Assembly: GCA_049517435.1 (NCBI GenBank)
Contig: JBEKRZ010000001.1
Span: 409-64,408, forward strand
DNA: 64,000 nucleotides
Source: Smithella sp.
Lineage (GTDB): Bacteria > Desulfobacterota > Syntrophia > Syntrophales > Smithellaceae
Direction of reading: 5' to 3'
The notes beneath the pieces were generated by a model, which did no database searches, was not told the origin of the DNA, and worked only from the letters and a program-made list of their open reading frames with translations. Positions 25,566 to 52,190 of this stretch are shown piece after piece. Position 1 is the first letter of the stretch. Each line of letters begins with the position of its first letter. A program made the translations under genes and the position numbers.

Positions 25566-25641
25566 GGCGGCATAGCCAAGTGGCTAAGGCAGCGGTCTGC
25601 AAAACCGTTATTCCCCGGTTCAAGTCCGGGTGCCGCCTCCA
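25566..25641 (+). tRNA. tRNA-Cys (GCA). This is the attachment site of the downstream island.
   Basis: GGCGGCATAGCCAAGTGGCTAAGGCAGCGGTCTGCAAAACCGTTATTCCCCGGTTCAAGTCCGGGTGCCGCCTCCA. The anticodon loop is CTGCAAA. Confidence 0.92.
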
Positions 25642-25705
25642 AGGATTTCAAGGAGTTGCAAGGTCATGGTACTTGCAGCCCTTTCTTTTTTGTGAAGTAA
25701 TTGTG

Positions 25706-25835
25706 AAGTAGGCACGCCTGTCAAGGTCTGATCCCAAATATCTACTGCTTTGACCTTATGGGAAGGCGCAAGATGGGAATAACGGAGGGTCATTGTCAGA
25801 GTCTTGTGTCCTAAAAGTTCTCTCTCAGAGCATTC
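25706..25835 (-). pseudogene. C-terminal remnant of a tyrosine integrase.
   Basis: The minus-strand translation ..SERELLGHKTLTMTLRYSHLAPSHKVKAVDIWDQ matches the integrase LLGH...RY.HL catalytic-Tyr box. An in-frame stop lies immediately upstream and no N-terminal part is present. Confidence 0.7.
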
Positions 25836-25992
25836 TTATAAATAAGGCAGGGTAAGATCAAAATACAACTTCCACACCTATTTTTTGCTTGCCAATAGGA
25901 TATTCAAAAACGGTTTTACAAACAATAATCCCAGTAAAACGGGGAAAAGGCCATCAACAAAAGTGATTAAAAGACTTCCTGCTAATAATTTA

Positions 25993-26244
25993 TCAGGAGT
26001 TGCGTAACTTGAGAAAAGAACCAGAATGGCTGATTCCCAAACCCCAGTATGTTATGGGGAGACGAGCAGCGATGATTGTCGTGGCACCTAAAAGCAAAAG
26101 AGCCTCAAGAGAAATCTCGATACCGACAGATTTTAACAGCACTAAGATAATGAGTAAGTTGGAGCCTTCCATTAATAAAGACTGAAGAATAATGATTATT
26201 GTCGATTTAGGATCGTATTTCTCAGTTAAAGACGTTAGCGTATC
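25993..26244 (-). pseudogene. Possible fragment of a flippase-like / UPF0104 (LPG-synthase TM region) membrane protein.
   Basis: The minus-strand translation ...LLKSVGIEISLEALLLLGATTIIAARLPITYWGLGISHSGSF resembles the family's LPxTPGGxG segment. It is bounded by stops and has no start. Confidence 0.3.
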
Positions 26245-26610
26245 CTAGATCAAAGATGGGATGTAATCCTAGCCTGTCCGTATCCTAATGAATCCTAATA
26301 AGTTTATAAACTTATCAAAACCTATCATTCAACCCCTTACAAACCATTAAGTTAAAATCCTTACTTTTTATAACTTTTTGAATATTAAGAATAAGTAAAA
26401 TTAAAAGGTAAGATAATCACTGAAAGTAAAGACTCAATTTCTTTCTGGAAACTTAACATTTTGCCAAGTAATACGCGCGTAAACGCAATCCTCAGAAAAC
26501 CTAAGTTTTCCAACATATAAAAAAGTGAGTTTATGGACGCTATAAAAAAAAATTATACGCACATTAACGAGAACCTGAAAAAACCTGAACTCAGCAAGCA
26601 CTTCTTTCTA

Positions 26611-26740
26611 TAATGTCATTTTTCTTATTTTCCCGATTCATACAATATTTCGATCAGTAATGAACACTATTCCCGCCCTACATTTTGCGGTTATTATTTT
26701 ATTGACATATAAGAAATCTTTTCTTATTGTTCGCTCATGC
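26611..26740 (+). promoter_or_regulatory. Conserved promoter-leader element, copy A (upstream of the GT-C gene at 26904).
   Basis: It is homologous by eye to 49671-49820. It includes TTGACA (26702-26707), a 17-nt spacer, and TATTGT (26725-26730). Confidence 0.55.
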
Positions 26741-26903
26741 AGGAGCAATATCTTATTAAAAATTTAGGGAAATAAGTATCAGATACCCCAATCGATACCC
26801 GTTATCTGCCCCGATCATTTACTAAAGTGGAAAAAAATGTTGATTCTACGGAATCATCCAGGTAATGACCTTGTTGAAATACTGTTTCGTTGATGAATGA
26901 GTT

Positions 26904-28568
26904 ATGCCGATGGGAAAGAAAAAAAAAGGCCGGCCGGATATAAAAGCATTGAGTCCAAAATCCCTGACTGACCATGGCCCGATACGACAGAAAAGGGCTG
27001 TTGAAGGCCACTGGGATGACAATTTCGCCATTAAATATTGTGGATACGCCTTTCTATTGGCCATTGTGGTCTTAGCTGTTTTTTTGCGAGTCTATGATAT
27101 AAGCGCCAAAGATGTTTGGTGTGACGAAGCCAATTCCGTGATTATTGCGGAGCTAAATCCTTCCGGCATCATTACCCGTATGAGCCATGATGCAAGCCCT
27201 CCACTTTATTATTTGTTATTACATTCCTGGATGTATGCCTTCGGAGAAACGGAATTGGCGTTACGTAGTTTGTCCGTTCTGTTTGGAATTTTGTTGATCA
27301 TCGCTGTTTATTTTACCGGCAAAAGAATATTCTCCGAAAAGGTGGGACTTTCTGCTGCGTTGATTGCCTCTGTGGCCCCGATTCATATCATGTATTCACA
27401 GCAAATCCGGATGTACACACTTCTGCCCCTCATGTCTCTTATGTCCATGTACTACCTGCTGCGCTTTATCCAGGAAAAGAAGATCTCCTTCCTCGCAGGG
27501 TACGGGATATTCACTATACTCAGCCTCTTCACTCATAATTATGGCATATTTCTTCTTCCCGCCCAAGCTTTATTGGTTCTACTTTTTGTGAGACAACGCC
27601 AAATGATTTTGTGGTGGTTCTTTAGTGTTGTCTGCATATGTGCTGTCTATGCCATATGGATCCCATCTCTTTCTGGTCAGATTTCGGCAGTCCCAAAGAC
27701 TGGATGGAGGGATTACTTCTGGAATCTTTACGGCTTCGGAGGATCGCTTTTCATGAGCGCTGCTTCCTTTTCTCCCGGAGGTCCGCTGCCTCCCTATGTG
27801 CCCCTCAATTCTATGCGCTGGATGCCTGTACTGCCGGTAGTTATCATGCTTTTACTACTGATAGCCAGCCTGATTCCTCTATTCAACAAAAAGTATGATC
27901 AGTGGAAAACAGGAGTTGGCTGGCTTGCCGTTTATTGTTTCATTCCTCTGATTTCCGCGGGAATTGTGTCTTATTTACACTCTAATATATACCTCCCGGG
28001 ACGCACTGACCAACTTGTTTTTCCAGCTTTCTGTCTTTTGGCAGCTGTCGGTATTCAACAGTTCCGGCCCGTTTTTCTACGGTACGCAGCAGTTACGCTG
28101 ATTATGGTTTGTTCTTTACTTACATTGTATGATTATTACAGAATCGATCTACAACAAGGGAATAAAATGATAGCGCAAACCATCAAAGAGCGTTTGGCTC
28201 CTGGTGATACAATTCTCTGTACGTCCTTGACAAGGGGATTTCTCGAATATTACCTGAGAGAGGAAAAGCCACGTCCGCATTTCTATTCGTATCCACCGGC
28301 GAAAGGGCGAAGTACAGGCGGTGAAGACGTTGCAGGGCTTCTCAAAAATCCGTGGAAACTGGACGAGCAGACAAAACTGTTGTTCAGCGAGGTCAAAAGC
28401 CATTCCTCAAGTGGACGCTGCTTCATCGTGTATGTGCCAAACGAGGTCAATAAATTTCTGGATGTGACGTTTATAACGAATGTTCCGGCTGGTCAAATAA
28501 CGAATATGGGCAGATTCAAACAATCTCTTTTTCAATTACCTGTTTATATTATTCTGGTTCATTTTTAA
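26904..28568 (+). CDS. GT-C fold membrane glycosyltransferase (ArnT/PMT, GT39/GT83-like).
   Basis: It has more than 10 TM segments, with a DEANS motif in the first periplasmic loop (VWCDEANSVIIAE) and a soluble C-terminal domain. The true start is uncertain. Confidence 0.75.
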   Translation: MPMGKKKKGRPDIKALSPKSLTDHGPIRQKRAVEGHWDDNFAIKYCGYAFLLAIVVLAVFLRVYDISAKDVWCDEANSVIIAELNPSGIITRMSHDASPPLYYLLLHSWMYAFGETELALRSLSVLFGILLIIAVYFTGKRIFSEKVGLSAALIASVAPIHIMYSQQIRMYTLLPLMSLMSMYYLLRFIQEKKISFLAGYGIFTILSLFTHNYGIFLLPAQALLVLLFVRQRQMILWWFFSVVCICAVYAIWIPSLSGQISAVPKTGWRDYFWNLYGFGGSLFMSAASFSPGGPLPPYVPLNSMRWMPVLPVVIMLLLLIASLIPLFNKKYDQWKTGVGWLAVYCFIPLISAGIVSYLHSNIYLPGRTDQLVFPAFCLLAAVGIQQFRPVFLRYAAVTLIMVCSLLTLYDYYRIDLQQGNKMIAQTIKERLAPGDTILCTSLTRGFLEYYLREEKPRPHFYSYPPAKGRSTGGEDVAGLLKNPWKLDEQTKLLFSEVKSHSSSGRCFIVYVPNEVNKFLDVTFITNVPAGQITNMGRFKQSLFQLPVYIILVHF

Positions 28569-28960: not shown

Positions 28961-29944
28961 CTACGCTCCATCTCCACGATGCCGTAAATCAATTTCTTGA
29001 TATTTATGAGAATCTCTGGTTTCCGCCTGCCGAAATCTGATATCCTCGAGCAGGGTCCTGTTGGAGGCCAGCAAATCCGCAACAAGCGCCACCATAATCG
29101 TCTGAAAGCCCATGCCCAAAAGAACCGACGCGAGGATCAGGGACTGGATATGGCCTCCGCCATAGCCTGTAAAATAATAGTAAAGGAATCTAACTCCCAC
29201 TAAAAACCCCAGGCCAAATAAAAGCAGGCCGATCGCGGTAAAGAAACGGAAAGGCCTGTAGAGGATAAAAATCCGGACAATCGTTGTAAACGATTTGAAT
29301 ATATAAACCGGCATACTTTTAATCAGGCGTGATGGTCGCAGGTCCTGATTAACACGCACCGGGATAGAAACGACCGACATGTTTTTTAGACCGGCTTGAA
29401 TGATTGTTTCGATGGTATACGTGTAATTATTGAATACAAGAAACTGCCTTGCCGCGTTTCTGCTAAACGCTCGAAAACCACTCGTCACGTCATCAACGCT
29501 TGTCCGGCTGACAATGCGAACCACCCAGCTTCCGACCTTCTGAAGAATTTTTTTCGGCAGCGAAAAATGACTGATACTGTCAATGGGACGAGCGCCCACA
29601 ACCAGATCGGCGCTTCCGTCCAAAACCGGCCGAGTCAAGGCGGGAATATCGTCTGCACAATATTGATTGTCCGCGTCCGTATTGACAATCACATCCGCAC
29701 CGAGCCGGATACATTCGCGTATTCCACGTGTAAAAGCTCCGGCCAGCCCCCGGTTGCGGGTATGCCTGACAATATAATCCACCCCCGCTTCCTTTGCCAC
29801 TCTCACGGTATCATCGGTGCTGCCGTCGTCAATGACCAGCCATTCCACCTTGTCGAAACCGGGAACAGACCGCGGCAAAGCAGCAAGAGTAATGGGCAAA
29901 GTTTCAGCCTCATTATAACAGGGAATTTGAATAATTAGCTTCAT
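28961..29944 (-). CDS. GT2 polyprenyl-phosphate glycosyltransferase (ArnC/GtrB/DPM1-like) with C-terminal TM helices.
   Basis: It has IQIPCYNEAETL, VIDDGSTDDT, NTDADNQY and two C-terminal TM helices. It is the last gene of the long minus-strand operon. Confidence 0.8.
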   Translation of the reverse strand: MKLIIQIPCYNEAETLPITLAALPRSVPGFDKVEWLVIDDGSTDDTVRVAKEAGVDYIVRHTRNRGLAGAFTRGIRECIRLGADVIVNTDADNQYCADDIPALTRPVLDGSADLVVGARPIDSISHFSLPKKILQKVGSWVVRIVSRTSVDDVTSGFRAFSRNAARQFLVFNNYTYTIETIIQAGLKNMSVVSIPVRVNQDLRPSRLIKSMPVYIFKSFTTIVRIFILYRPFRFFTAIGLLLFGLGFLVGVRFLYYYFTGYGGGHIQSLILASVLLGMGFQTIMVALVADLLASNRTLLEDIRFRQAETRDSHKYQEIDLRHRGDGA

Positions 29945-29971
29945 TATTTCTTCCTTTTCAAGCGATAAAAA

Positions 29972-31450
29972 TTATTTCAGGGAAGACACTTTTCTTCTTA
30001 TCCATACAAAAAAATTTCTCAGCCAGATTATTTCCTGAAGTGTCAGACATTTAAACCAATAACATATTAAAAGCAGGATTGCAAAAGATCCCAAAACAGA
30101 AACTACCGGACCAGCAAAACGCATAGCATAAAACACTAAAGCAGCGGAAACGACAGCTACACCAGGTTTTAGAAGAGCAGAGCGCAGATCAATCGCGATA
30201 TAATTGCGTAATAAAAACATAAAATAAAGGGCGGTCAGAGACATCGCCGCCGCCGCGCTTATTATCGCGCCTACAGCGTTATATCTAATCGCCGCTACTG
30301 AAATGGTTAGCGCAAAAGCAATTGCCCCAAGCAACGAGCCCAGAAATATTTGCAAGTCTTTTTTCCCCGCCTGCAATACGCTGTTTAAAACCTGACGCAT
30401 TGTAAACGGAATTATCAGCCACAATACCGGCCCAATCAAATTGCCGGCCTGAGCATAACGGGCTCCGAATATTTTAACTGTCAGCCAGGGAGCAAATGCT
30501 GTGCCCAACAAGGCCATCGAGCACCCAAACAGTACCGAAAAGCGAATCATCGTTTCCGCATAAACACGGTCTTTTCCATCTCTCCTGATTGCCGACCTGC
30601 TCAGGACTGGAATAGAGGCGCCGCTCAGGGCAAGCGGAATATTGGAAAGAACAAATAAAGCCTGCATGGCCAAAGCAAGTTGTCCAAGAACATCGCCGGA
30701 AGAAGCTACATGACGAAAAAATACTAAAGGCCCCTGATAGGGAATGGCCATCAAAAGCATGGAAACTCCCAGAGGGAATCCTTGCATAAAGATACGCCTC
30801 ATATCTTTGAGTTTAACATTCAGTCGTAAAACCAGTACACGGCGATTTATTATTATCAACCCGTAAACGGCATCACAACACCAGACGAATCCATGAACCG
30901 CAACCACCGGCAGAGCTTTCTTCCAGATAAAAATTACAACAAGACCGAGGGCGATTTCCAGAGAACGAAAAATTGCTTCTTGACGTAAGGAATATTGGTT
31001 GCATTCATAGGCGGTGTAAACACTTCCTGTCCAAGCAGACAGCGAACGGCCGATTAGCGCAAAAGCAAAAACAAGGACAATAGAACGGGACGCCGGGTCC
31101 GTCTCAAAAAACAGAGAAAGAATGATGTATGCGGCGGTTGTCACAATGATTGATGCAATACTAAGAGCCAGAGTAACCGTTGCCGTATGATCGCCTTTCT
31201 GTCGGCTTCTTCCGGCATCTCTGCTTAAAACTGTCGCCATGCCCATTTTGGTAAGGGGCAGAAACAACAAATACCAGGCTATCCCATAACTTATCATGCC
31301 GTAGATTTGAGGGCCCAAAACTCTTGCAATAATAATAATATAGAAAAAGCGCGTAATAAAATACACGCCTTGCCCGCTAAGCAGGTAGATTAAGTTTCTG
31401 GCTATGGAAGCGACGCCTCGGCCATCAATTGTGGGTGTTGATTTGGGCAA
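29972..31450 (-). CDS. Polysaccharide flippase (Wzx / MOP superfamily).
   Basis: It has about 12-14 TM segments, and its N-terminus (ARNLIYLLSGQGVYFITRFF) is typical of polysaccharide biosynthesis protein family members. Confidence 0.75.
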   Translation of the reverse strand: MPKSTPTIDGRGVASIARNLIYLLSGQGVYFITRFFYIIIIARVLGPQIYGMISYGIAWYLLFLPLTKMGMATVLSRDAGRSRQKGDHTATVTLALSIASIIVTTAAYIILSLFFETDPASRSIVLVFAFALIGRSLSAWTGSVYTAYECNQYSLRQEAIFRSLEIALGLVVIFIWKKALPVVAVHGFVWCCDAVYGLIIINRRVLVLRLNVKLKDMRRIFMQGFPLGVSMLLMAIPYQGPLVFFRHVASSGDVLGQLALAMQALFVLSNIPLALSGASIPVLSRSAIRRDGKDRVYAETMIRFSVLFGCSMALLGTAFAPWLTVKIFGARYAQAGNLIGPVLWLIIPFTMRQVLNSVLQAGKKDLQIFLGSLLGAIAFALTISVAAIRYNAVGAIISAAAAMSLTALYFMFLLRNYIAIDLRSALLKPGVAVVSAALVFYAMRFAGPVVSVLGSFAILLLICYWFKCLTLQEIIWLRNFFVWIRRKVSSLK

Positions 31451-31489
31451 TTAATATTATCCTTTTTTTACTAAAATCATGGAAGCCAT

Positions 31490-32410
31490 TCAATAATAGA
31501 TTCTGCCTGATAATTTTTTCAACTTATTAATCGTTTCTCCGGAAATACAACGTCGGCTGCGCATTGCCCGAGGCCACCCCGCCAGCGCGTCTTTAACACC
31601 TTGAATAAAATAAATCAGATGCCGATGTCGAAGTGACAAGATAAAATAATATCCCCACCATAAAAACGTATACGGAACAGCATATCGCCAGGGCAGGTTT
31701 CTCAAGGCAATCCAAAACCGGCTTCGCATGCCGAAATATATCCATTTCCCCTGAATCCTCGCCTGAGGCGTTTCATAATGAATAACGGATATCGCAGAGG
31801 AACGCAAAATTTTATATCCTTTGTCCAACATGCGATAACTGAAATCCAGTTCTTCACCGATAAAAAACAGATGCTCCCAGAACATCCCTATTTTCAAAAA
31901 AATCTCACGTTTGACAGCAAAACCGGCGCCGCAGAAATAACTACACTCATAATCTTCATTGATGATTTTTTTGTCCGCTCTGGGAATGCTTTTGTATTCT
32001 TCTAAACCATCGCTAGGCTTCACAATTCTAAAGGCAATACACCCCAAACTGCTATCGGATTGTAAATACGAAACCAACCGGTTAAGTACTTCCACGTCCG
32101 CAAAAATCGCGTCGTCATCAAGAAAAACGCAGAACTCTCCTGTGGACATCTGCACGCCGTAATTTCTTCCGCCCGGAACACCAAGATTCTTACTGAGATA
32201 AAAATATCGCACATAAGGAAACATGCTTTGAACCATATCTCCCGTTCCGTCAGTTGAAGCATTATCCACCACAATAATTTCATAATCAGCGAATTTCTGA
32301 AGGAGAATAGATTCCAGACATCTCCTTAAAAGCTCCTTTCGGTTCATAGTGACCAGTATTAAGCTGATCAGAGGTTTATTCTTAATGACTTCTTTTTTGC
32401 ACTTGTTCAT
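31490..32410 (-). CDS. Glycosyltransferase family 2.
   Basis: It has ISLILVTMNR, VVDNASTDGT and FLDDDA (DxD) motifs. Confidence 0.8.
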   Translation of the reverse strand: MNKCKKEVIKNKPLISLILVTMNRKELLRRCLESILLQKFADYEIIVVDNASTDGTGDMVQSMFPYVRYFYLSKNLGVPGGRNYGVQMSTGEFCVFLDDDAIFADVEVLNRLVSYLQSDSSLGCIAFRIVKPSDGLEEYKSIPRADKKIINEDYECSYFCGAGFAVKREIFLKIGMFWEHLFFIGEELDFSYRMLDKGYKILRSSAISVIHYETPQARIQGKWIYFGMRSRFWIALRNLPWRYAVPYTFLWWGYYFILSLRHRHLIYFIQGVKDALAGWPRAMRSRRCISGETINKLKKLSGRIYY

Positions 32411-32412
32411 AA

Positions 32413-33444
32413 TTAATAAAGCAAACGGATTTTTGATTTAAAACTTAATCGAACCGCACGTGCAAAAATAATTTGCAACCAGAGCAGTGATTCCGGCAGT
32501 GAAATAAAAAAACTTAAAACACGAAGTTTCCAATCATTTCTGTTTTTACGGATAAACTCCTTAAGGCGGGCGCTACAGAATTCTTTCAGAAGAACATTTC
32601 TTTCAGAAGTATCCTGACGGATCATGCAGCGCACCCATAAGACACTTGCGTAATAGGCATGTTGACCACCAATGATTCGGCGGTATTTTTCATCTTTTAC
32701 GAAATTTAGTGTGGACAAAATCTGCCCAAACGAACGTATTCTTTCTTGTGTACCGTGAATGGATTTATCCGTCTCTAGCGAGGCATGCCTGTAACGTCTG
32801 CAATAACCTTCAAAATGCATATAACCAACACGTTGAGCCCGAATCATACACATATAAAAGAAAAAGTAATCTTCACCGGTAAGAGAATCGCCAAACTTCA
32901 GATCGTTTTCAACGATAAATTCCCGGCGATATATTTTCATGCCCGGTTGTTGAATACGCCCGCCGGTGCGCCCTATCCAATAAAGTCCCGGAGCAATATG
33001 GTTTTCATCTTTCTCATCAAGATTAAAATAAAATTTATCATACCAACGCCTTATTTTACCGTCATCTTCAAACGATCTGCCGTTGAAGATGATTATATCG
33101 CCTGCATTGCGACATATTCGATTATACGCGGTCTTTACAACATCCGCCGTAAAAACGTCATCGGAATCAAGAAACATTATATGATCAGCCTTAGCCATCC
33201 GCATGGCATCGTTTCTGGCGGCCGACGCGCCTTGATTTGCCTTGTCCAGAATAATGATTCTGTCATCTTGCTCCGAATATCGTCGAATTATTTCGAGACT
33301 TCCATCTATTGAGCCGTCATTGACGACAATAATTTCCATCTCCGGGATTTCTTGATTGATAACGGAATCAAGACATTCGGCCAGATAGGCTGCCGTATTG
33401 TAAACAGGAATAATTACGCTGACCATTGGCATCGTTTTTTTCAT
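32413..33444 (-). CDS. Glycosyltransferase family 2.
   Basis: The start is re-set to the ATG at 33444 (MKKTMPMVSVIIPVYNTAAYLAECLDSV), which forms an ATGA overlap with the upstream gene's stop. It has VVNDGSIDGS and LDSDD motifs. The longer ORF-track N-terminus lies inside the upstream gene. Confidence 0.8.
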   Translation of the reverse strand: MKKTMPMVSVIIPVYNTAAYLAECLDSVINQEIPEMEIIVVNDGSIDGSLEIIRRYSEQDDRIIILDKANQGASAARNDAMRMAKADHIMFLDSDDVFTADVVKTAYNRICRNAGDIIIFNGRSFEDDGKIRRWYDKFYFNLDEKDENHIAPGLYWIGRTGGRIQQPGMKIYRREFIVENDLKFGDSLTGEDYFFFYMCMIRAQRVGYMHFEGYCRRYRHASLETDKSIHGTQERIRSFGQILSTLNFVKDEKYRRIIGGQHAYYASVLWVRCMIRQDTSERNVLLKEFCSARLKEFIRKNRNDWKLRVLSFFISLPESLLWLQIIFARAVRLSFKSKIRLLY

Positions 33445-34442
33445 ATCGCCTCTCCACGCCGGAAATTCAATGAAGAAATATACCCGGCCGCTCTGGCAAA
33501 ATGCATCGAAACGATCAGAGCAGGAACCAACATAACAAGAATCGCTCGTTTTTTCTTTATTGCTCCTATGACTCCAGTCATCAAAGCGGCCAAGATATAA
33601 AGAACGTATGTAAAACCAAAAATAATCTTTAAGTGGGGAAGTATCACGGACGCAACGCCCAGAATGGGAGCACCAACAAACACAGCTACCAAAGTTAAAT
33701 GAGGAGCGCGATGGATACCCATTTGCCTGCATATGCGCGCCATCGCCATGTTGCGTCTTACAAATGAAGCATATGTAGTGTCGCGGCTGTGCTCCACGCG
33801 CACGTGCGGCGCATACACCACTTTTCCCCCGCGTGCCTTGATCCTTTTCGCCAATTCGACATCCTCGTGAACAGAAATGGCCGGATTAAAAATCAACCCT
33901 CCACCCGAACCATCCAATGCCACTCTTTTCGCGGCGTCCGCTATAACAGTCATATTCCAGAGCTTGGGATAATAATCTCCCCATTTCATTCGACGGTCGG
34001 ACCGTGTCCCTCCTGTTCCCATCCATGAATTCAAGACTACATCGAGGGCAAGGTCAAATTCGGAAGCGCCATCCGTCAAAAAGTCCGATCCACCTAAAAT
34101 ATAAGCATCAGGATATTCCAGAAGAGATCTTTCAACGTTTATCAGCCAATCAGAAGGACAAACGCAGTCGTCGTCTGCAAACACCCATACCTGACCATTG
34201 GCTGAAGCGCAGGCGGCATTGAGAATTTCGGAACGATTACCGCCGCAATAAATGATTTGCCATCCCCGCCCGCCAAGGTCGGATTCGGCAATGCTTTTCA
34301 TCATTTCTTTTTGACCAGCGATAATCACCTCAAACCCTCCTCCAGGCGAATTGACATTGGTCAGTGACTTTACCGCTTTGGCAAGAAATTCCCCTCCGTG
34401 ACAAACTGGCACAATAACGCTGTATCTGGAAGGATTAATCAT
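33441..34442 (-). CDS. GT2-like glycosyltransferase with a C-terminal membrane domain.
   Basis: It has YSVIVPV, FADDDC (DxD) and a VHEDVEL motif, followed by three C-terminal TM helices. Confidence 0.7.
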   Translation of the reverse strand: MINPSRYSVIVPVCHGGEFLAKAVKSLTNVNSPGGGFEVIIAGQKEMMKSIAESDLGGRGWQIIYCGGNRSEILNAACASANGQVWVFADDDCVCPSDWLINVERSLLEYPDAYILGGSDFLTDGASEFDLALDVVLNSWMGTGGTRSDRRMKWGDYYPKLWNMTVIADAAKRVALDGSGGGLIFNPAISVHEDVELAKRIKARGGKVVYAPHVRVEHSRDTTYASFVRRNMAMARICRQMGIHRAPHLTLVAVFVGAPILGVASVILPHLKIIFGFTYVLYILAALMTGVIGAIKKKRAILVMLVPALIVSMHFARAAGYISSLNFRRGEAI

Positions 34443-36510: not shown

Positions 36511-36633
36511 TAAAAATCACCTTTCTATTTTATACTTCGGCCGCTTCGGTAAGTCAGTGATATTCCACGTAGGATCGCAGACAACCTGTTGAAAATATTC
36601 CTATCACATATTAAGTTAGGATTCAGCCATTTT

Positions 36634-42794: not shown

Positions 42795-42885
42795 AATGAC
42801 CTCTCGCTGGCGATTGACAAATAGCTTCCAATGTTGATTGTATTCCTTGTATAGCTGATACCTGTTATTTCTATGTACGAGTTTA

Positions 42886-44330: not shown

Positions 44331-45854
44331 ATGAATTGCCGTTCACTGAACAATAGTATTGAGGAAGTGATAAAGTGCACTGCTCATGCAGATCCGGCGG
44401 CAAGTGCTATAGTTTCTTCAAAATACAATCCACTTTCGTATTCGCAACTGGCTTGGCAGATCAACCACGTTGCCGGCACACTGAGCAAATCAGGAGTTAA
44501 AAATTCTACCCGTATTGCAATTGCTGTAAAAGATGCCGCGCCAGCCGCATTGGCAATCGTAGCTGTTGCGTGTTTTGCGGCGGCTGTTCCCCTGGATCAG
44601 AATCTGGCGGCGGCAGAAATTGAGATACGGCTCAAGCTTCTGAACATAGATGCAGTCTGCGTGCTTGACGGTGAAGATACTGCGACCAGACTTGTCGCCG
44701 AGAAGCATAGGATTCCAATAATCGAACTTGTACGGCAGGATAAGCACAAACTTTCATTTTCGATGTCTGTCCCGGAAATTTCAAATAAAATTCAACCGGA
44801 TGATGCCCCATTGGATGATGTGGCTGTCATTTTTCAAACATCCGGAACTACGGCAGAACCCAAATTAGTTCCGTGCTTCCACTCCACTTTGCTGGCCGCG
44901 GCCCAACGCACTTGTATGTGGTTCAACCTCAATAAAAATGATCGATGCCTGAGCATTGCGCCCCCCTATTACAGTCATGGCCTGACATTCACAATACTGG
45001 CGCCGCTTCTTTCGGGCGGCAGTGTGGCGTTTCCATCAAGTCCGAATGAGGTGAATTTAGTTGAATGGTTTGAGACGCTAAGCCCGACATGGTTCTCAGC
45101 ATCACCTACCATGCATTTGGCAATTTCTGAAAAATTAGCATCAACCTCATCAGGTCTGAAGCATCAACTCAGACTTGCCGGTTCCGGTGGAGCACAACTA
45201 CCGGAAAATGTGCGATCAAATTTACAGATGGCGCTGGGGATTCCTATTCTTGAACACTATGGCATGACGGAGGCCAGTCAGATTTCCACAAATTTGCCTC
45301 CGCCCGGGCCGTATAAATCAGGCACTGTCGGAATTCCGCCTAGTGATACCGTGATTATTGCCGGGAGCGGCGGCAATGCTTTGCCGCCAGGCCAAAAAGG
45401 TGAAATTTGGGTTCGCGGTCAAAATGTAATAAGGGAGTATTTGAATGGACCGGATTTGAACCAGACGGCTTTTTCCAATGGCTGGTTTCGGACAGGAGAC
45501 ATCGGCAGTTTTGACGAAGATGGCTTTTTAATGATTCACGACAGAATAAAGGAGCTCATCAATCGCGGCAGCGAAAAAATTTCACCATTTGAGATTGAAG
45601 CAATTATATTAAAACATCCTGATGTCTTGGAAGCTGTGGCCTTTGCCGTGCCGCACCCGCGTCTGGGCGAGGATGTGGCTGCCGCGGTAGTGTTACGCCC
45701 GGGGGCAATTTTGGATAATGTCGAATTCCGACGCTTTATGAGCGCGCATTTATCATGGAACAAAATTCCCAGACGAGTCCACATCATGGAAAGTATTCCG
45801 AAAGGCCTTGGTGGAAAGGCGCTGCGCAGAACACTAAGAGAACTTTATTCATGA
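44331..45854 (+). CDS. AMP-dependent synthetase/ligase (stand-alone adenylation enzyme).
   Basis: The ANL core motifs are present: FQTSGTTAEPKLV (A3), HYGMTE (A5), WFRTGDIG (A7) and PKGLGGKALR (A10 Lys). Confidence 0.88.
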   Translation: MNCRSLNNSIEEVIKCTAHADPAASAIVSSKYNPLSYSQLAWQINHVAGTLSKSGVKNSTRIAIAVKDAAPAALAIVAVACFAAAVPLDQNLAAAEIEIRLKLLNIDAVCVLDGEDTATRLVAEKHRIPIIELVRQDKHKLSFSMSVPEISNKIQPDDAPLDDVAVIFQTSGTTAEPKLVPCFHSTLLAAAQRTCMWFNLNKNDRCLSIAPPYYSHGLTFTILAPLLSGGSVAFPSSPNEVNLVEWFETLSPTWFSASPTMHLAISEKLASTSSGLKHQLRLAGSGGAQLPENVRSNLQMALGIPILEHYGMTEASQISTNLPPPGPYKSGTVGIPPSDTVIIAGSGGNALPPGQKGEIWVRGQNVIREYLNGPDLNQTAFSNGWFRTGDIGSFDEDGFLMIHDRIKELINRGSEKISPFEIEAIILKHPDVLEAVAFAVPHPRLGEDVAAAVVLRPGAILDNVEFRRFMSAHLSWNKIPRRVHIMESIPKGLGGKALRRTLRELYS

Positions 45855-46951
45855 ATAGTATGACACAGGAAAATTTGAGTGACGTTGCCTTGGAAAAAGA
45901 ACTTCTGGATATCTGGCGACGTGCGCTCAAGAATGAAAATTTGACTATCGATGACGACTTTTTTGAGTGCGGCGGGGATTCATTGCTCGCCATACAAGTG
46001 TTCCTGGAGACCGAGCAGCTCACAGGGAAATCATTGGCGAAATCAATAATATTCGAAACGGGCACTGTGCGGGTGTTGTTAAAGAAAATTATGTCAGCGG
46101 ATAAAATTAAGCCTCAGGTTTCCGTCCGAATAGGTTCTGTAAATGGAAAAATAATTCATTTTTTCCATGGCGACTTTGAATTTGGAGGAGTTTTCATTAA
46201 AGCTTTCTCCAAAATGCTTGGCAGCGATTACCTTATCCATGCGATAGCTCCCCATTTACCTCATGAAGGTAATATGCCGGACTCAATAGAAGATATGGCT
46301 AAAGAAAGATTGCCCAATATTATTGAAAAACAGCCTGATGGGCCGTATATGATACTTGGACACTGCAACGGGGCGCTGGTCGCATTTGAAACGGCAAGAC
46401 AACTTATTTTAATAGATAAGGAAGTAAAAGCCGTGGTAATGATCGATCCGGTAATAATGTCAGTCAGGAAGTCCGCACAGTTCATTTTTATAATCGCAGA
46501 CCTCTTTATGCGTCTGATGGGTTTTCATAAAAGCAAGCGTAACAAGCGCCTGATCTGGATCTGGAGAAAAATGGTAGGCTTGGATGGACTGACTAAAGAT
46601 AGCTGGTGTCGCGCTCTTTCCTTCTGTCAGGAGACCTGGCCTCAGAAACGAACATCGCTAAAAAAAATTCTGGAGTATATTGGCAACCACATCAATAACA
46701 AAGAACCCGACCATAAATCCGAAGAACAAAAAAATATAGACCAGCATTACAGAAATGTTTTATTAAACTATAGAACCCTTCAGCTGGACGTACCCGTGTT
46801 ATACATTTCTTTGGAATTTAGCGGATATGCGTGGCGGCGGATTGCCAGGAATACTGTTTATATTAATATATGCCGTGGAAAACACGACTTTTGGAATGAA
46901 GAATATTCACAAGACCTGTTCAATAAAATAAAGGATTTTATAAACCGCTGA
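45851..46951 (+). CDS. Carrier protein (PCP/ACP) fused to an alpha/beta-hydrolase thioesterase with a Cys nucleophile.
   Basis: The start is re-set to the ATG at 45851, giving an ATGA overlap with the ligase stop. It has a phosphopantetheine site FFECGGDSLLAIQV, a nucleophile elbow ILGHCNGALVA (Cys codon 46364-46366), and later Asp (VVMIDP) and His (RGKHDF) candidates. Confidence 0.8.
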   Translation: MNSMTQENLSDVALEKELLDIWRRALKNENLTIDDDFFECGGDSLLAIQVFLETEQLTGKSLAKSIIFETGTVRVLLKKIMSADKIKPQVSVRIGSVNGKIIHFFHGDFEFGGVFIKAFSKMLGSDYLIHAIAPHLPHEGNMPDSIEDMAKERLPNIIEKQPDGPYMILGHCNGALVAFETARQLILIDKEVKAVVMIDPVIMSVRKSAQFIFIIADLFMRLMGFHKSKRNKRLIWIWRKMVGLDGLTKDSWCRALSFCQETWPQKRTSLKKILEYIGNHINNKEPDHKSEEQKNIDQHYRNVLLNYRTLQLDVPVLYISLEFSGYAWRRIARNTVYINICRGKHDFWNEEYSQDLFNKIKDFINR

Positions 46952-46957
46952 TATATT

Positions 46958-47959
46958 ATGAATAAACTATCAAACAACCCCGTGTACGATATCAGTCTGT
47001 CATATCAAAAGACAGCAGCCATGAAAGCGGCAATTGAGTTGGATATTTTCACCAAAATTAGCGATCAAAATTTGAGTGTTGAGCAAATCTCGGATATTAC
47101 CGGCGCTTCGCTGCGCGGGGTGCGCATTCTGTGTGACTTTCTTTGCGCTATTGGTTTGCTGGAAAAAAACAAAAATCTCTATAACCTTTCGATGGAAGCA
47201 AAAAGATTTCTTGATCGGACATCGCCGCATTACATTGGCGATGTAATTGACTTTCTGGCTGCGCCGGAGATAGTCTCCATGATAACGGATGATCCGAAAT
47301 CTTATGTGATAAAGGGAGGGTCTTCCGGATTGACAAAGATTTCACCGGAGAGCCCTGTTTGGGTAAAATTCGCACGGGCAATGATTCCTTTCGCTTCTGT
47401 AGCGGCTAAGCGAACCACAGCCTACATTGCAAAAAAAGCAATGCAACCGCGCAAAGTATTGGATGTCGCGGCAGGACACGGTCTATTTGGCATAGAAGTG
47501 GCGAATGCTATAAAAGATGCTTTGGTTACGGCCATTGACTGGGAAAATGTTTTGGCAGTTGCCAGAAGAAATGCTGATTTAGCAGGAATGGCTGATCGAT
47601 ATAAAACAACAAGCGGTAATGCTTTAGAGATCGACTGGGGCGATAACTATGATCTTATTTTGCTGCCGAATATACTACATCATTTTGATCAAGATGGATG
47701 TATTCATCTGCTCGGCAAGGCGAAAGATTCTCTCTCTATCGATGGTTCTGTATTCGTGATAGATCTTATGCCAAATCCGGATCGTATATCGCCGCCGGAG
47801 CAGGCGGCCTTTGCTTTTCGGATGTTGGCAACGACTCCGTCAGGCGATGCCTATACTTGTGCCGAATATGAAACAATGGCCAGAGTTGCCGGATTGACTT
47901 TAGTAGACTCGATGCGGCTCCTGCCAACGCCGCAAACTCTGCTGGAATTTAAACTTTAG
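46958..47959 (+). CDS. Class I SAM-dependent O-methyltransferase (family 2 type, with an N-terminal dimerisation/wHTH domain).
   Basis: It has a SAM motif VLDVAAGHGLFG and acidic DWENV / LPNILHHF motifs. Its ~333-aa length is typical of small-molecule OMTs. Confidence 0.8.
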   Translation: MNKLSNNPVYDISLSYQKTAAMKAAIELDIFTKISDQNLSVEQISDITGASLRGVRILCDFLCAIGLLEKNKNLYNLSMEAKRFLDRTSPHYIGDVIDFLAAPEIVSMITDDPKSYVIKGGSSGLTKISPESPVWVKFARAMIPFASVAAKRTTAYIAKKAMQPRKVLDVAAGHGLFGIEVANAIKDALVTAIDWENVLAVARRNADLAGMADRYKTTSGNALEIDWGDNYDLILLPNILHHFDQDGCIHLLGKAKDSLSIDGSVFVIDLMPNPDRISPPEQAAFAFRMLATTPSGDAYTCAEYETMARVAGLTLVDSMRLLPTPQTLLEFKL

Positions 47960-48373
47960 ATGAGGAGAATTATGGGCATAAAAATATTCAAAGGCATTGA
48001 GAGCGCACACGATACTGACAATATATCCGGCATTAAGGGAATCTTAAGACTTTCATTCCTGGAAAAGGAATATATAAAGGGAAAATCATTTCACATTGCG
48101 TCGCACATTATAGAAGGCTCTTATATTCATAAGAAAGTGTGGAATTATTCACAGGCGCATAAGCACGACTTTGACGAAATAAACATGCTTATATCGGAAA
48201 AGTCCACTCTGAAATATAAACTGGAACTGGATGGAAAAGAGGAAGAAATCATTTCGCCCTCACTTATTTTTATCCCGGCCGGAACCACCCACCATGCCGA
48301 GCCGGTATGCGGAACGGGTATATTTCTATGCATCTATCTTGACACTGATGTCAAAGATGATGTAAAAATTTAA
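47960..48373 (+). CDS. Cupin-domain protein.
   Basis: A beta-barrel motif region (LIFIPAGTTHHAEPVCGTGIFLCIY) is present. The alternative start ATG at 47972 is preceded by GAGGAG. Confidence 0.5.
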   Translation: MRRIMGIKIFKGIESAHDTDNISGIKGILRLSFLEKEYIKGKSFHIASHIIEGSYIHKKVWNYSQAHKHDFDEINMLISEKSTLKYKLELDGKEEEIISPSLIFIPAGTTHHAEPVCGTGIFLCIYLDTDVKDDVKI

Positions 48374-48387
48374 TGGAGTAATTTTCT

Positions 48388-49509
48388 ATGGAATCCAGAG
48401 TTGTTGTTGTTCATGCGGATATTGATCCTGTAAAAGGTATTGCCCGGCCGGGACCTCACCAGATGTACAAGAACCCCCGGATATCGGTGGAGGACCGAAA
48501 GTTACCGGTGCTCCGTCCGGACGAAATTCGGGTAAAAATGATATACGCCGGCATATGCGGAACGGACGTACATCTCGTGACCACGCATCCGGATACCGGC
48601 TATATAAGATGTTCATCTCCGGCTCAAATCACCGCTGCAGGCCGGGTCATCGGTCACGAGGGCATGGGCAGAGTTCTTGAAGTAGGCTCTCAAGTCCGCC
48701 ACGTGCAGCCAGGCACTTACGTCACATTTGAGTCTATTATAGTCTGCCATTACTGCGATGAGTGCAGAAGAGGAGACTTTAATCAATGTCGTCATGCGCT
48801 GCTGCTGGGATTGGAGAAAGATGGACTCTTCGGCGATATTGTCGATGTCCCGTCCATGCTTACCCACGACGTTAGCGATATGACGGGAAGTGAAAAGGGA
48901 CGGCAGGCAGCTGCCTGTGTGGAACCGGCGAGTGTCGCTTATGTGGCCTGCCAGAACACGCATCTGAAAGCTGGAGACGTTGTTGCCATCTTTGGCGCCG
49001 GTCCTATTGGATTATTTGCCGCCATGTTGAGCAAGGCTGTTTTCGGCGCCTCCCAGGTGCACATGGTTGAACCTGTTTTGTTCCGGCGAAAACTGGCCGG
49101 AAAATGGAGCGATGAGATCTACGACATTGATGAATTCTTTAACCATGGCCCATCATCTGTTGATGTCGTAATAGAGGCATCCGGAAACATGGTCAATATC
49201 AACAGGGTATTCCGCAGATTAAATGCCAACGGACGTGTCGCTATTCTCGGCAGGAGTGGTGAGCCTCTGTCATTGGATGCAGTGGACCACATGATTACCA
49301 ACGCGGTTTCTATAATAGGGTCGAGAGGGCATCTGGGCGGCGCATTTGCAAGAATTTTGACGTTGTACCGCAATGGAATCATATCCCTTGATGCTGCTGT
49401 AACCGGCATCATCAATGGTCCGGAGAAAATTTGTGATCTTTTAATTTCTCCGAAAAAGCTTCTTGAAGAAAACTGCAAGGTTTTAGTGAACTTTGATTGC
49501 AATGAGTAA
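48388..49509 (+). CDS. Zinc-dependent medium-chain dehydrogenase/reductase (threonine/sorbitol dehydrogenase-like).
   Basis: It has a catalytic Zn region (CGTDVH, GHEGMGRV), a structural Zn motif (CHYCDECRRGDFNQC) and a Rossmann motif (GAGPIGL). Confidence 0.85.
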   Translation: MESRVVVVHADIDPVKGIARPGPHQMYKNPRISVEDRKLPVLRPDEIRVKMIYAGICGTDVHLVTTHPDTGYIRCSSPAQITAAGRVIGHEGMGRVLEVGSQVRHVQPGTYVTFESIIVCHYCDECRRGDFNQCRHALLLGLEKDGLFGDIVDVPSMLTHDVSDMTGSEKGRQAAACVEPASVAYVACQNTHLKAGDVVAIFGAGPIGLFAAMLSKAVFGASQVHMVEPVLFRRKLAGKWSDEIYDIDEFFNHGPSSVDVVIEASGNMVNINRVFRRLNANGRVAILGRSGEPLSLDAVDHMITNAVSIIGSRGHLGGAFARILTLYRNGIISLDAAVTGIINGPEKICDLLISPKKLLEENCKVLVNFDCNE

Positions 49510-49820: not shown

Positions 49821-49901
49821 CCATTAGAATCGATAACAAAATATAGGATATATAGGGGATTGGGTTATTCTGTTTAATTGTTACGTGGAGATTCTCTATT
49901 A

Positions 49902-51785
49902 ATGAAGAAAAAATACATTTACCTTGTCGTAATATTTTTAATAGTTGCTTCTTTTATTGCGTATTGCCGAATTTTAGGGAATGGATTTATTAATTTTGAT
50001 GACATACAATACATTACCAAAAACAATCATATTAAATCAGGCATTAATCCTGAAAGTATTAAATGGGCGTTTAGTACTGTTGATCTATACTACTGGCAGC
50101 CACTTACTTGGCTTTCGCACATGTTGGATTGGAATTTGTTTAAGGATAATGCCGGTGGCTACCACTTAATCAGTTTGCTTCTGCATATAGGCAGTGTTCT
50201 CCTTCTATTTTTCTTTTTAAACAGGACGACAAATAATATTTGGCCTTCGGCCTTCGTTGCGGCTCTTTTTGCCCTGCATCCCCTGCGGGTTGAATCCGTA
50301 GCCTGGGCCGCCGAGCGCAAAGACGTTTTAAGTATGTTTTTCGGATTAGCGAGTATTTATGCCTATGCCTGTTATGTCGAAAATTTTAAAATTTCCCAAT
50401 ATATTATTTGTTTAATATTATTTGCGTTGAGTTTGATGGCTAAACCAATGCTGGTCACTTTGCCTTTTGTTTTGTTGCTTCTTGATTATTGGCCGCTGGG
50501 CCGATGGCAAAAGGTTCTCACTCCAGTAGAAGTGCCGATAGATGCTACTGAAAGAGCACCGAAGAAAAAAGCTAAAAAGCGTAAAGCCGATTCTATTAAC
50601 GAGAAAAAAAAATTCATACCGCTGACGAGCAGTTATCAAATAATTCGCTCTCTTTTATGGGAAAAGGCGCCTTTTATTTTCTTAACCATCATTTCAAGTA
50701 TTGTGACTATCTGGGGTCAAAATAAATTCGGCGTGGTTGTTTCCATGGAAAATCTGCCCTTTTCTGCACGTGTTCAGAACGCGGTCATTTCTTATGTTTC
50801 TTATTTAGGAAAAACTTTTTGGCCGGTTGACCTGGCCATATTTTATCCATATGAATACACTTTTCCGTTCTGGAAAATCTTAGCTTCTTGCTTCATCTTT
50901 ATTGGCATTACCATTGTTGTGATTTATGCTATTAAGAAATTGCCTTTTTTATTCGTCGGTTGGTTTTTGTATTTGGGAACTCTGATTCCCGTAATTGGGT
51001 TCGTGCAGGTCGCCACACAATCGATAGCCGACCGCTTTACTTATCTACCCTCTATCGGCATTGCTGTTATGCTGGCCTGGGGTATTCCGTCTTTGATTAA
51101 GAATGAAGAAACACGCAAAAATATTTTGTTACCGGTAGGAATATTCGTCTTAGTTATCTTATCCGCTTTAACGTGGCATCAATGCGGTTATTGGAAAAAC
51201 AGTATTGAACTTTTCAGTCACACTTTGCAGGTAACAAAAGATAATGCTCAGGCGCATAACAATTTTGGCCTTGCCCTGTTTGTCGAAGGAAAAATAGAAG
51301 AGGCTATTTTTCATTATAACGAGGCCATCTGTATAAAACCGGATCGCTTATATTATTCAAACAGGGGGGATGCTTACCGTAAGTTAGGCCAGTATCAACG
51401 TGCCATCGAGGACTATAATGAAGCCATCCGCCTGAAACCGGATTTCAATGCCTACTACGACAGGGGGAATGCTTATGAGGATCTCGGTCAGCATCAACAG
51501 GCCATCGAAGATTATAATGAAGCCATCCGCCTGAAACCGGATTTCAATGCCTACTACAACAGAGGGAATGCTTACACTAAGTTAAACCAGTATCAACTTG
51601 CCTTGAAGGACTATAATGAAGTCATCCGCCTGAATCCGGATTATGCCGAAGCCTACAACAACCTGGGAGTTGTCTATTTTATACAGGGCAACAAAAATCT
51701 TGGCTGTCGTAATGCGCAAAAAGCATGTGAATTAGGAAAGTGCAAAATATTAGAAATGGTCACAGGCAAGGGGGACTGCCGTTAA
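49902..51785 (+). CDS. GT-C fold membrane glycosyltransferase fused to C-terminal TPR repeats (TMTC/PMT_2-like).
   Basis: The N-terminal multi-TM domain begins with an FDD motif (NGFINFDDIQYI). The C-terminus has 5-6 TPR units with repeated AIEDYNEAIRLKPDFNAYY. The ATG at 49902 is preferred over the TTG at 49878. Confidence 0.8.
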   Translation: MKKKYIYLVVIFLIVASFIAYCRILGNGFINFDDIQYITKNNHIKSGINPESIKWAFSTVDLYYWQPLTWLSHMLDWNLFKDNAGGYHLISLLLHIGSVLLLFFFLNRTTNNIWPSAFVAALFALHPLRVESVAWAAERKDVLSMFFGLASIYAYACYVENFKISQYIICLILFALSLMAKPMLVTLPFVLLLLDYWPLGRWQKVLTPVEVPIDATERAPKKKAKKRKADSINEKKKFIPLTSSYQIIRSLLWEKAPFIFLTIISSIVTIWGQNKFGVVVSMENLPFSARVQNAVISYVSYLGKTFWPVDLAIFYPYEYTFPFWKILASCFIFIGITIVVIYAIKKLPFLFVGWFLYLGTLIPVIGFVQVATQSIADRFTYLPSIGIAVMLAWGIPSLIKNEETRKNILLPVGIFVLVILSALTWHQCGYWKNSIELFSHTLQVTKDNAQAHNNFGLALFVEGKIEEAIFHYNEAICIKPDRLYYSNRGDAYRKLGQYQRAIEDYNEAIRLKPDFNAYYDRGNAYEDLGQHQQAIEDYNEAIRLKPDFNAYYNRGNAYTKLNQYQLALKDYNEVIRLNPDYAEAYNNLGVVYFIQGNKNLGCRNAQKACELGKCKILEMVTGKGDCR

Positions 51786-51812
51786 TTTGAAGGGGGACTC
51801 TAAAACTGATTA

Positions 51813-51864
51813 CAAATGGTAATCCTCAATTCTAACAATATCTCTTTACTGAAACTTTGTAGGT
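51813..51864 (+). repeat. Direct repeat R2, flanking the TPR GT-C gene.
   Basis: CAAATGGTAATCCTCAATTCTAACAATATCTCTTTACTGAAACTTTGTAGGT. It is followed at 51883-51899 by TGTGAAGTAATTGTGAA, which is also present at 25691-25707 next to attL. Confidence 0.75.
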
Positions 51865-51912
51865 ATAAGATTGATTTCAACTGTGAAGTAATTGTGAACC
51901 TAACAAAACAGA

Positions 51913-51960
51913 ACAAGGGGTAACAACCTCGAAGATGCTACCCCTTGTCACTTGATTTTT
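51913..51960 (+). terminator. Candidate intrinsic terminator near the island's right end.
   Basis: A 10-bp stem ACAAGGGGTA / TACCCCTTGT with a 16-nt loop, followed by CACTTGATTTTT. Confidence 0.4.
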
Positions 51961-52019
51961 CCTAATAGAAATGATAAACATTTAAGAAAAGATAAATTAA
52001 CGTTTTAATTTCCAGATAA

Positions 52020-52065
52020 CTGCAAAACCGTTATTCCCCGGTTCAAGTCCGGGTGTCGCCTCCAA
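52020..52065 (+). repeat. attR: displaced copy of the tRNA-Cys 3' part (anticodon loop to CCA).
   Basis: CTGCAAAACCGTTATTCCCCGGTTCAAGTCCGGGTGTCGCCTCCAA has one mismatch to 25597-25642. Weaker similarity continues for about 20 nt, and both copies are followed by a hairpin and a T-run. Confidence 0.9.
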
Positions 52066-52190
52066 TGATATTTGAGGAGTTTACTTACTTTTTTATGAAA
52101 GTAACTCCTTTTTTTTGAGTAGAGTCCCATCAGGCAGGAACTGGATGCTCCTTATAATAGTGAGACCAAAGCTTCATAAACAAAGTGCAT

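Follow-up and report, generated by a model that had tools for sequence, protein, structure and literature searches.

A regenerated target gene together with a displaced fragment of that gene is the signature by which genomic islands are mapped, and an anticodon-centred class of element attachment sites (attP) has been described (PMC4383910). Islands of class 'A' in the Islander collection (Hudson, Lau and Williams 2015, PMC4383910; Williams 2002) have an intact tRNA gene at one end and its displaced 3' fragment at the other, an identity block that begins in the anticodon loop and reaches the 3' end of the tRNA gene, and a tyrosine integrase gene proximal to the tRNA gene. We found the same arrangement in a Smithella sp. 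genome (assembly GCA_049517435.1, contig JBEKRZ010000001.1), in a 64,000-nt stretch referred to here as the window, which very probably contains a 26,423-bp genomic island that was put into tRNA-Cys(GCA) by a tyrosine integrase, since decayed, and that carries surface-glycan genes as its cargo. The island has a size within the usual range of Islander islands and is unlike them in that its integrase is reduced to the last ~40 homologous codons, in that the Islander integrase filter would probably reject it, and in that its host is an uncultured syntroph. It is the anatomy of the locus that points to integrase-mediated insertion.

Other described systems resemble the island in part. Like the cis-mobilizable elements (CIMEs) of Streptococcus and others, as defined in ICEberg 2.0 (PMC6323972), it has lost its integration genes, is without transfer genes, keeps both attachment sites (attL and attR) and lies in a hotspot that shows accretion in relatives; unlike them, it is known from sequence only, has no partner known among ICEs (elements both integrative and conjugative), and has as counterparts in relatives P4-type residents that use another sublocation of the tRNA gene. 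With HP1/P2-type phage integrases, the nearest among solved catalytic domains, it shares a catalytic domain that matches 5c6k and 1aih in full-length members of its integrase family, attachment at a tRNA anticodon loop and direct-repeat words flanking the core, and it departs from them in that the N-terminal ~120 residues of the integrase family are unmatched, that one word pair (the P' pair) lies in the integrase coding tail, and that the element is not a phage. P4-type (DUF4102/Arm-DNA-bind_3) islands in relatives (L002, L010, L012, L013 and L023) use the same tRNA-Cys on the same side and bring their own terminator, yet their integrase is of another family and reads away from the tRNA, their repeat is 23 nt long, and their cargo is, for example, type I restriction-modification and Fic genes. 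With regard to cargo, rhizobial NodPQ/NodH and sulfated polysaccharide loci are sulfated surface-glycan systems with dedicated synthesis of 3'-phosphoadenosine-5'-phosphosulfate (PAPS). The island is similar to these in having a dedicated copy of CysD and CysN/C beside a sulfotransferase and glycosyltransferases, and differs in its glycan scaffold, in a conserved radical SAM/SPASM partner, and in being an integrative island in a syntroph.

Anatomy of the insertion and the empty site

Two tRNA genes on the + strand were placed by ARAGORN and Rfam at the left end of the island: tRNA-Gly(GCC) at 25481-25555, a core flank that is kept upstream of tRNA-Cys in related genomes, and tRNA-Cys(GCA) at 25566-25641, the integration target, which scores 66 bits in Rfam and has the same sequence as the tRNA-Cys of the empty-site genome L003. 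A direct repeat begins at position 32 of this tRNA (25597), the first base of the anticodon loop (CT-GCA-AA, with the anticodon at 25599-25601). Its left copy, the attL core at 25597-25646 (+), comprises the anticodon loop through CCA plus 4 nt and is identical at 48 of 50 positions to the right copy, attR, at 52020-52069 (+), 26,423 bp away from start to start; blastn extends the match to 25597-25657 against 52020-52081 (92% over 62 columns, E 5e-17). Within the repeat, a 46-nt core (25597-25642 and 52020-52065, both on the + strand) has 45 of 46 positions identical, the sole mismatch being a C to T at 52056 (TGCCGCC versus TGTCGCC), and each half of this core is present exactly twice in the window and absent from all 100 shuffles. 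The identity block spans the anticodon loop to the tRNA 3' end, that is, the anticodon-loop ('A') sublocation, and a search at up to 3 mismatches found no internal tRNA-Cys fragment between the repeats.

Each copy of the repeat is followed by a hairpin and a T-run, at -17.5 kcal/mol for attL (z -2.9) and -12.4 kcal/mol for attR (z -3.4); a simple terminator scan had detected neither, and folding revealed both. The left one, at 25650-25690 (+), now ends the rebuilt tRNA-Cys and differs from the native terminator of all empty sites, while the right one, at 52074-52117 (+), has the same sequence as in L003 and is conserved across Smithella loci. Searches with Rfam, over the whole window at the gathering threshold and over 25640-26910 at E<=1, returned only tRNAs. 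The core genes on both sides (DapB, FolK, transaldolase and PgsA on the left; CarD, a PIN/TRAM YacL-like protein, IspDF and GltX on the right) were identified by domain searches in agreement with the earlier sequence-only reading, and carD (52608-53093, +) is the first of them on the right.

The locus was then compared with its counterparts in relatives by a scan with PgsA, one genome per species, which returned 37 Smithella/Syntrophales loci. In at least 15 related Smithella-type genomes, pgsA, tRNA-Gly, tRNA-Cys and carD are contiguous, with ~500-670 nt from the end of pgsA to the start of carD, both tRNAs lying between, and with carD starting ~200-300 nt past tRNA-Cys. The empty site of L003 is especially close to the window, as its CarD is 100% identical and its flanks have ~89-90% nucleotide identity. 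In all empty sites a conserved terminator, GAGGAGTTTACTT...AAGTAGCTCCTTTTTT, lies directly behind tRNA-Cys, whereas in the window it lies behind the right-hand repeat and not behind tRNA-Cys. This position identifies the right-hand repeat as the displaced 3' part of the host gene, and, taken together with the empty sites, it indicates that the 26.4-kb block is an insertion and not an ancestral segment. The tRNA-Cys now in use has a host-derived 5' part, is completed from the anticodon loop onward by element DNA, and ends in the element's terminator. Of the features that Islander looks for, an intact tRNA at one end, a displaced piece of it with unchanged orientation at the far end and an empty site are present here. 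The sequence-only reading, which had placed an island in tRNA-Cys on the strength of the 46-nt repeat with its acceptor-arm mismatch, the weaker similarity beyond it and a hairpin with a T-run behind each copy, gave these features correctly in coordinates and description, and the empty site that it proposed to look for in relatives was found.

It might be supposed that the block has been at this locus since a common ancestor and that relatives have lost it, with the repeat a by-product of something else, and the core-like codon usage of the island and the Smithellaceae type of its cargo would fit such a history. We consider it very improbable, as integration is marked by just such a displaced tRNA 3' fragment accompanied by an integrase remnant (PMC4383910), the block is missing from at least 15 genomes spread over the clade, the nearest included, each with the native terminator directly behind the tRNA, and the other occupants of the tRNA-Cys site are unrelated. 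An assembly artefact that joined unrelated contigs at a repeated tRNA sequence might be suspected given the metagenomic source, and the contig of one relative (L001) stops just past tRNA-Cys. Against this, a single 263-kb JGI contig crosses both junctions at the expected spacing, the attL junction was found again in a second sample (L082), and at least two more assemblies (L101 and L102), which come from other samples or studies, reproduce the attR junction, so that an artefact is extremely improbable and, with both junctions reproduced in independent assemblies, excluded for practical purposes. All four assemblies inspected show the occupied state.

Two differences were observed just outside the repeats. 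In L082, the 220 nt upstream of tRNA-Gly (1-220) differ from the window and the remainder is 99.4% identical, which suggests strain-level variation just left of the tRNA pair. On the right, a segment of ~250 nt (52118-52370), which separates the native terminator from the leader of carD, is missing from the empty site of L003; only 52232-52279 within it matches a core repeat family, and the segment 52113-52372 folds no better than shuffles.

The tRNA-Cys gene is a hotspot for islands. In the five species closest to the window (L001-L005), it is empty in L003, holds islands of the P4-type integrase family (Arm-DNA-bind_3) in L001, L002 and L004, and is followed in L005 by a P4-type remnant and then by a stub of the XerC-like integrase family found in the window. 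In the P4-type islands the repeat is 23 nt long and extends from the T arm as far as the 3' end (L002 13860-13882), and the cargo is unrelated to that of the window, such as type I restriction-modification genes. In L005 and in L088, a 525-nt scaffold from another study, the right-end repeat of a P4-type island (the 23-nt attR) lies directly left of the XerC-like stub, which shows tandem accretion. A regular-expression search for LLGH..Y.H gave no intact integrase in related loci and overlooked the P4-type ones, which were recovered by reading the open reading frames (ORFs). In addition, L014 (10845-18052) and L034 (10838-18107) have a 7.2-kb insert between tRNA-Cys and carD in which no tRNA fragment or repeat, no native terminator and no integrase were found; its N-terminal sequences are apparently those of a YgiQ-like radical SAM protein, an MBL-fold protein, a CopA-like ATPase and a lipoprotein.

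The integrase remnant and its tandem words

The remnant of the tyrosine integrase lies next to attL at 25620-25830 (-), with homology from 25823 to 25680 that corresponds to the last ~47 residues of family members of ~372 amino acids (aa). A tblastn search with the near-full-length member L085 (374 aa, one in-frame stop) matched the window at 25823-25680 only, at 69% identity (E 8.5e-15). The remnant sequence, RELLGHKTLTMTLRYSHL, includes the catalytic Tyr and retains, of the R..HxxR..H/W..Y signature, only LLGH and RY; its frame crosses the terminator hairpin without a stop and terminates within the T arm of the tRNA. The L088 scaffold is ~97% identical to window positions 25618-25830, and its integrase frame runs on upstream where the window diverges, which places a deletion breakpoint at 25830/25831. 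PF00589 was matched by the L088 fragment (E 3.8e-15) and by a near-full-length family member (4e-32), and a Pfam search with the 65-aa remnant by itself gave nothing at E<=1.

That only about 40 codons of a tyrosine integrase survive beside attL, as the sequence-only reading had it, is thus borne out by the tblastn match and the L088 continuation, and the intact homologues that it suggested seeking exist at 371-389 aa. An exhaustive search gave full-length members of 340-433 aa, whose catalytic domains match 5c6k (E 3e-20), 1aih (HP1 integrase) and XerA-type recombinases; the N-terminal ~120 residues of the family had no Pfam or PDB match. Between the repeats, no complete integrase gene was found beyond this remnant of the last ~47 residues, nor any other recombinase, excisionase, phage or conjugation gene (Pfam, NCBIfam, PHROGs), and the same searches found no prophage or ICE hallmarks (phage structural or replication genes, relaxase, type IV secretion) among the cargo. 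No further pieces of the XerC-like integrase and no P4-type remnant were present anywhere in the island or window. The stretch from the deletion scar to the conserved leader of the first cargo gene (25831-26665) is non-coding, with no meaningful ORFs, no integrase pieces and no Rfam match at E<=1, and it is not common to L089-L091.

Two other interpretations of the remnant were rejected. A partitioned integrase of the archaeal SSV type, whose ORF contains attP and is split exactly there, does not fit a break at 25830/25831, ~190 nt from the att core, with only the non-conserved tail overlapping the core. The idea that the stubs are a conserved small protein was prompted by the best 120 word-index matches to the integrase C terminus, all of 50-94 aa. 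These are partly pseudogenes called from an internal Met and partly short contigs: L084 is a frameshifted full-length gene, L085-L087 each have a single in-frame stop, the short ORFs use a conserved internal Met as their start, and the family has full-length members (340-433 aa).

Two tandem 9-bp words, TTGTGAAGT, with an 11-bp period lie at 25690-25709 (+), inside the integrase tail codons T-S-Q-L-L-H-K, and are candidate P' arm-type sites. A second pair (cTGTGAAGT, TTGTGAAcc) at 51881-51900 (+), 120-139 nt left of the attR core, provides candidate P arm-type sites. Positions 25691-25707 and 51882-51898 both read TTGTGAAGTAATTGTGA, a 17-mer, and the 9-mer TGTGAAGTA has only three exact copies in the 64 kb, all beside the att cores: two in tandem just right of attL and one at 130 nt to the left of attR, behind which comes a fourth, partial copy. 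The second pair is identical in three independent assemblies. The word-to-core distances are typical of arm sites, as in the attP layouts of lambda and HP1.

Read on the strand of the integrase gene, the left pair is ACTTCACAA-TT-ACTTCACAA, coding T-S-Q-L-L-H-K, and a word is duplicated with the 11-bp period in every family member that was read as DNA, each with its own word. The tandem word is ACTTCACAA in the window, L084 and L088, ACTGCACAA in L085-L087, and ACTATACAA in L096 and L098, as well as in L005, where copy 2 has one mismatch. Both copies co-vary across the family, even at a synonymous third position of Leu (CTT, CTG or CTA), and among 114 protein tails, which are related sequences whose counts are not a formal probability, 43 have I..Y, 43 have A/S..H and none has a cross combination. 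The concerted change of the two copies, including that at the synonymous position, clearly points to a constraint that acts on the DNA. The word pairs are probably arm-type sites for the N-terminal domain of the integrase, with P' in the coding tail and P near attR. A second word pair was also seen in L084 (8743-8763) and L098 (4912-4932), where it is inverted, spaced by 12 bp and located by an excisionase-like gene (HTH_17); an operator or an additional arm site are possible roles for it.

Several observations concern the family beyond the island. Integrase stubs beside tRNAs recur in the window, L005 and L096. L096 (1-10388) has type I restriction-modification, Fic and SIR2 genes and then a 90-aa stub of the same family at tRNA-Ala, and L098 (4500-7331) has HTH_17 and HTH_3 genes and a split integrase of the family at tRNA-Gly; in both islands the decayed integrase converges on the tRNA 3' end. 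The family members P0159, P0199 and P0122 have a CxxC...CxxC zinc-ribbon-like insertion just ahead of the HDLRH motif. Towards the start of the window lies an intact tyrosine recombinase of 388 aa (677-1843, +; PF00589 4e-18), whose 3' end overlaps a tRNA-Met (1786-1862, -); this convergent layout over 677-1862 is the same as at tRNA-Cys and suggests a second island that continues beyond the left edge of the window.

Cargo genes and composition

The first cargo gene (26904-28568, +) encodes a GT-C glycosyltransferase (PMT_2, ArnT/PMT-like; PF13231 E 1.8e-13) and is preceded by a sigma-70-like promoter, TTGACA-17-TATTGT, at 26702-26730 (+), which is conserved in homologous leaders and has a similar leader before 49878 as its counterpart; the leader of the first cargo gene folds no better than shuffles. 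On the opposite strand follow a GT2 polyprenyl-phosphate glycosyltransferase-like gene (AglJ/PpgS/ArnC-like; 28961-29944), a Wzx-like polysaccharide flippase (Polysacc_synt; 29972-31450) with 61% identical homologues in syntenic Smithellaceae loci, three GT2 glycosyltransferases (31490-32410, 32413-33444 and 33441-34442), a radical SAM/SPASM enzyme (34439-35557) that is 71% identical and syntenic in L092-L095, and a PAPS-dependent sulfotransferase family protein (35554-36510; Pfam Sulfotransfer_3 and Sulfotransfer_1), for which 2546 homologues were found, one of them named as Smithellaceae. Genes for PAPS synthesis lie beside it at 36634-39464 (-), namely, CysD and a CysN/CysC fusion of the large subunit of sulfate adenylyltransferase with adenosine 5'-phosphosulfate (APS) kinase (Pfam: APS_kinase 4.5e-61, GTP_EFTU 2.4e-43, PAPS_reduct 8.5e-53), followed by an anion permease of the TauE/SafE family (39507-40262, -) and a hypothetical protein of 103 aa (40293-40604, -) with no PHROG or NCBIfam match. 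An AT-rich block (41023-43857, -) encodes two radical SAM proteins, of which one has SPASM, and a GT8 glycosyltransferase of GC 0.30. The + strand then carries an acyl-AMP ligase, a carrier protein-thioesterase, an O-methyltransferase, a 137-aa hypothetical protein and a Zn-dependent dehydrogenase (44331-49509), and finally a 635-aa protein in which a GT-C (PMT_2-like) N-terminal domain is fused to TPR repeats (49878-51785, with 99-nt repeats at 51361-51657).

From these genes, the cargo most likely makes or decorates a sulfated surface glycan with its own supply of PAPS and so changes the cell surface. The sequence-only reading had taken the cargo to be entirely envelope and glycan chemistry; the glycan cluster agrees with that, and the module of acyl-AMP ligase, thioesterase, methyltransferase and dehydrogenase at 44.3-49.5 kb does not. 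No cargo gene had an NCBIfam match at the curated cut-off, and for this reason we do not specify the functions further.

The genes from 28961 to 36510 keep their order in glycan loci on the chromosomes of other Smithellaceae, with amino-acid identities of 60-72%; these loci have no cysDNC and no tRNA or integrase within 10 kb, and the first cargo gene has homologues at 82-87% in other glycan contexts. In the related Smithellaceae loci, the sulfotransferase and the radical SAM/SPASM gene are always adjacent. This pair, a sulfotransferase and then a radical SAM/SPASM protein of 372-373 aa, was seen at 34439-36510 in the window, at 10001-12072 in L092 and at 10001-12063 in L094, at 62-72% identity. 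By synteny, the cargo is from the Smithellaceae gene pool and not from a distant donor, and with its composition taken into account the donor was probably a related Smithellaceae lineage.

GC content is 0.420 in the island versus 0.402 in the core, and the median GC at third codon positions (GC3) is 0.43 versus 0.39 (p 0.005). The mosaic that had been noticed by eye is real, with a gene GC of 0.30-0.39 at 41-44 kb versus 0.41-0.49 at 27-40 kb, and so is the lack inside the island of the hairpin repeats of core spacers. Two families of such repeats (~50-150 nt) occupy 8 of 17 core spacers (5938-6090, 11580-11763, 21927-22052, 23393-23559, 24527-24653, 52232-52279, 53122-53200 and 62359-62499) versus none out of seven spacers inside the island (Fisher p 0.054; Poisson P(0) 0.003). 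In L089 and L091, relatives of these repeats are inserted in the leader of the PMT_2 homologue. Elsewhere in the window, at 60996-62241, there is a ~630-nt tandem duplication (85% identity) with two paralogous ORFs of ~190 aa (-), whose GC3 of 0.54-0.55 is exceptionally high.

History, mobility and meaning

Our results lead us to propose the following history. A circular element would have brought a copy of the tRNA gene that began at the anticodon loop and included CCA, with a terminator of its own behind it, and the integrase would have made the crossover in the anticodon loop of tRNA-Cys. Integration would have rebuilt a functional tRNA-Cys at attL and moved the host 3' part and the native terminator to attR. 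The integrase gene would have come to lie at the attL edge, reading towards the tRNA with its frame running through the terminator into the T arm, and its N-terminal domain probably bound both the tail words and the pair near attR. A later deletion would have taken everything upstream of residue ~316 of ~372, and the last ~40 homologous codons were probably kept because deletions cannot enter the tRNA or its terminator.

Some observations weigh against this account or parts of it. The profiles of composition proposed in the sequence-only reading gave a divided answer, as GC3 is slightly higher in the island, while codon usage is indistinguishable from that of the core (p 0.66), so that composition alone would call no island, and the interior is a mosaic with GC from 0.30 to 0.50. 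No functional integrase, excisionase or circular form was seen. Neither an initiating transferase nor Wzy or Wzz was recognised in the island, which leaves its glycan product uncertain. The first and the last cargo gene have homologues that lie side by side in L090, 1.4 kb apart, and in L084 and L098 the inverted second word pair is beside the HTH_17 gene and not at an island end. Given the mosaic interior and the adjacency in L090, the element that first arrived may have differed from the 26.4 kb seen today.

A rival reading is that the island is a composite, built by tandem accretion or by later recombination of glycan cassettes, and that the 26.4 kb were never one mobile unit. The hotspot character of tRNA-Cys, with the closest five species empty, P4-type or P4-type with a XerC-like stub, the tandem accretion in L005 and L088, the mosaic GC, the neighbouring homologues in L090 and internal repeats of 52-58 nt (at 36598/43911 and 49567/51813) are all consistent with a composite, which we nevertheless think rather unlikely: between the ends there is no tRNA-Cys fragment at up to 3 mismatches and no second integrase remnant, the arm-word pairs are at the two ends only, and the internal repeats lie in gene leaders and resemble duplicated promoter regions. 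As to mobility, a single insertion by the since-decayed integrase leaves an island that is no longer self-mobile and that, with both att cores kept, is like a cis-mobilizable element. The sequence-only reading called it probably fixed, which holds in that no recombinase is left and falls short in that both att cores and the putative arm sites are intact, such that a cognate integrase in trans, or accretion, could move it. We think it quite unlikely that the island is in fact not fixed and is still moved as a CIME by the cognate integrase of a related element in the same cell or of one that integrates beside it. This would agree with attL and attR differing at only 1 of 46 core positions, outside the anticodon loop, with the presence of both putative arm-word pairs, with the circulation of integrases with the arm word ACTTCACAA in other metagenomes (L084 and L088), and with the definition of CIMEs as elements that have lost integration and transfer genes and kept attL and attR (PMC6323972), as is the case here. 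It does not sit well with the 64-kb window, which has no cognate integrase (the intact recombinase at 677-1843 is only 22% identical), with the failure to find an excisionase, or with the assemblies inspected, which have no empty-site or circular junction and are occupied in 4 of 4.

Taken as a single integrase-borne insertion that has lost its integrase, the island is clear but ordinary among tRNA-integrated islands, and the covariation of the arm words and a portable sulfation cassette are its only points of wider interest. Our current understanding of how such islands work is unchanged. What appears to be a conserved peptide motif in the integrase tail, T-x-Q-x-L-H/Y-N/K, is really a pair of co-evolving DNA words, and such tail words could help to predict arm-type sites and integrase specificity groups in metagenomes. 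A single tRNA-Cys gene is the target of at least two integrase families, which use two sublocations of it.

Syntrophs depend on close contact with methanogen partners. We offer as a tentative and doubtful idea that the island, with its glycan assembly genes, its PAPS synthesis and the conserved pair of sulfotransferase and radical SAM/SPASM protein, is a self-contained, portable cassette for a sulfated surface glycan, exchanged by Smithella to switch its surface and still movable through its att cores and arm-type sites, among them the pair in the coding tail of the integrase. More generally, the island documents the horizontal exchange of cell-surface chemistry among uncultured syntrophs.

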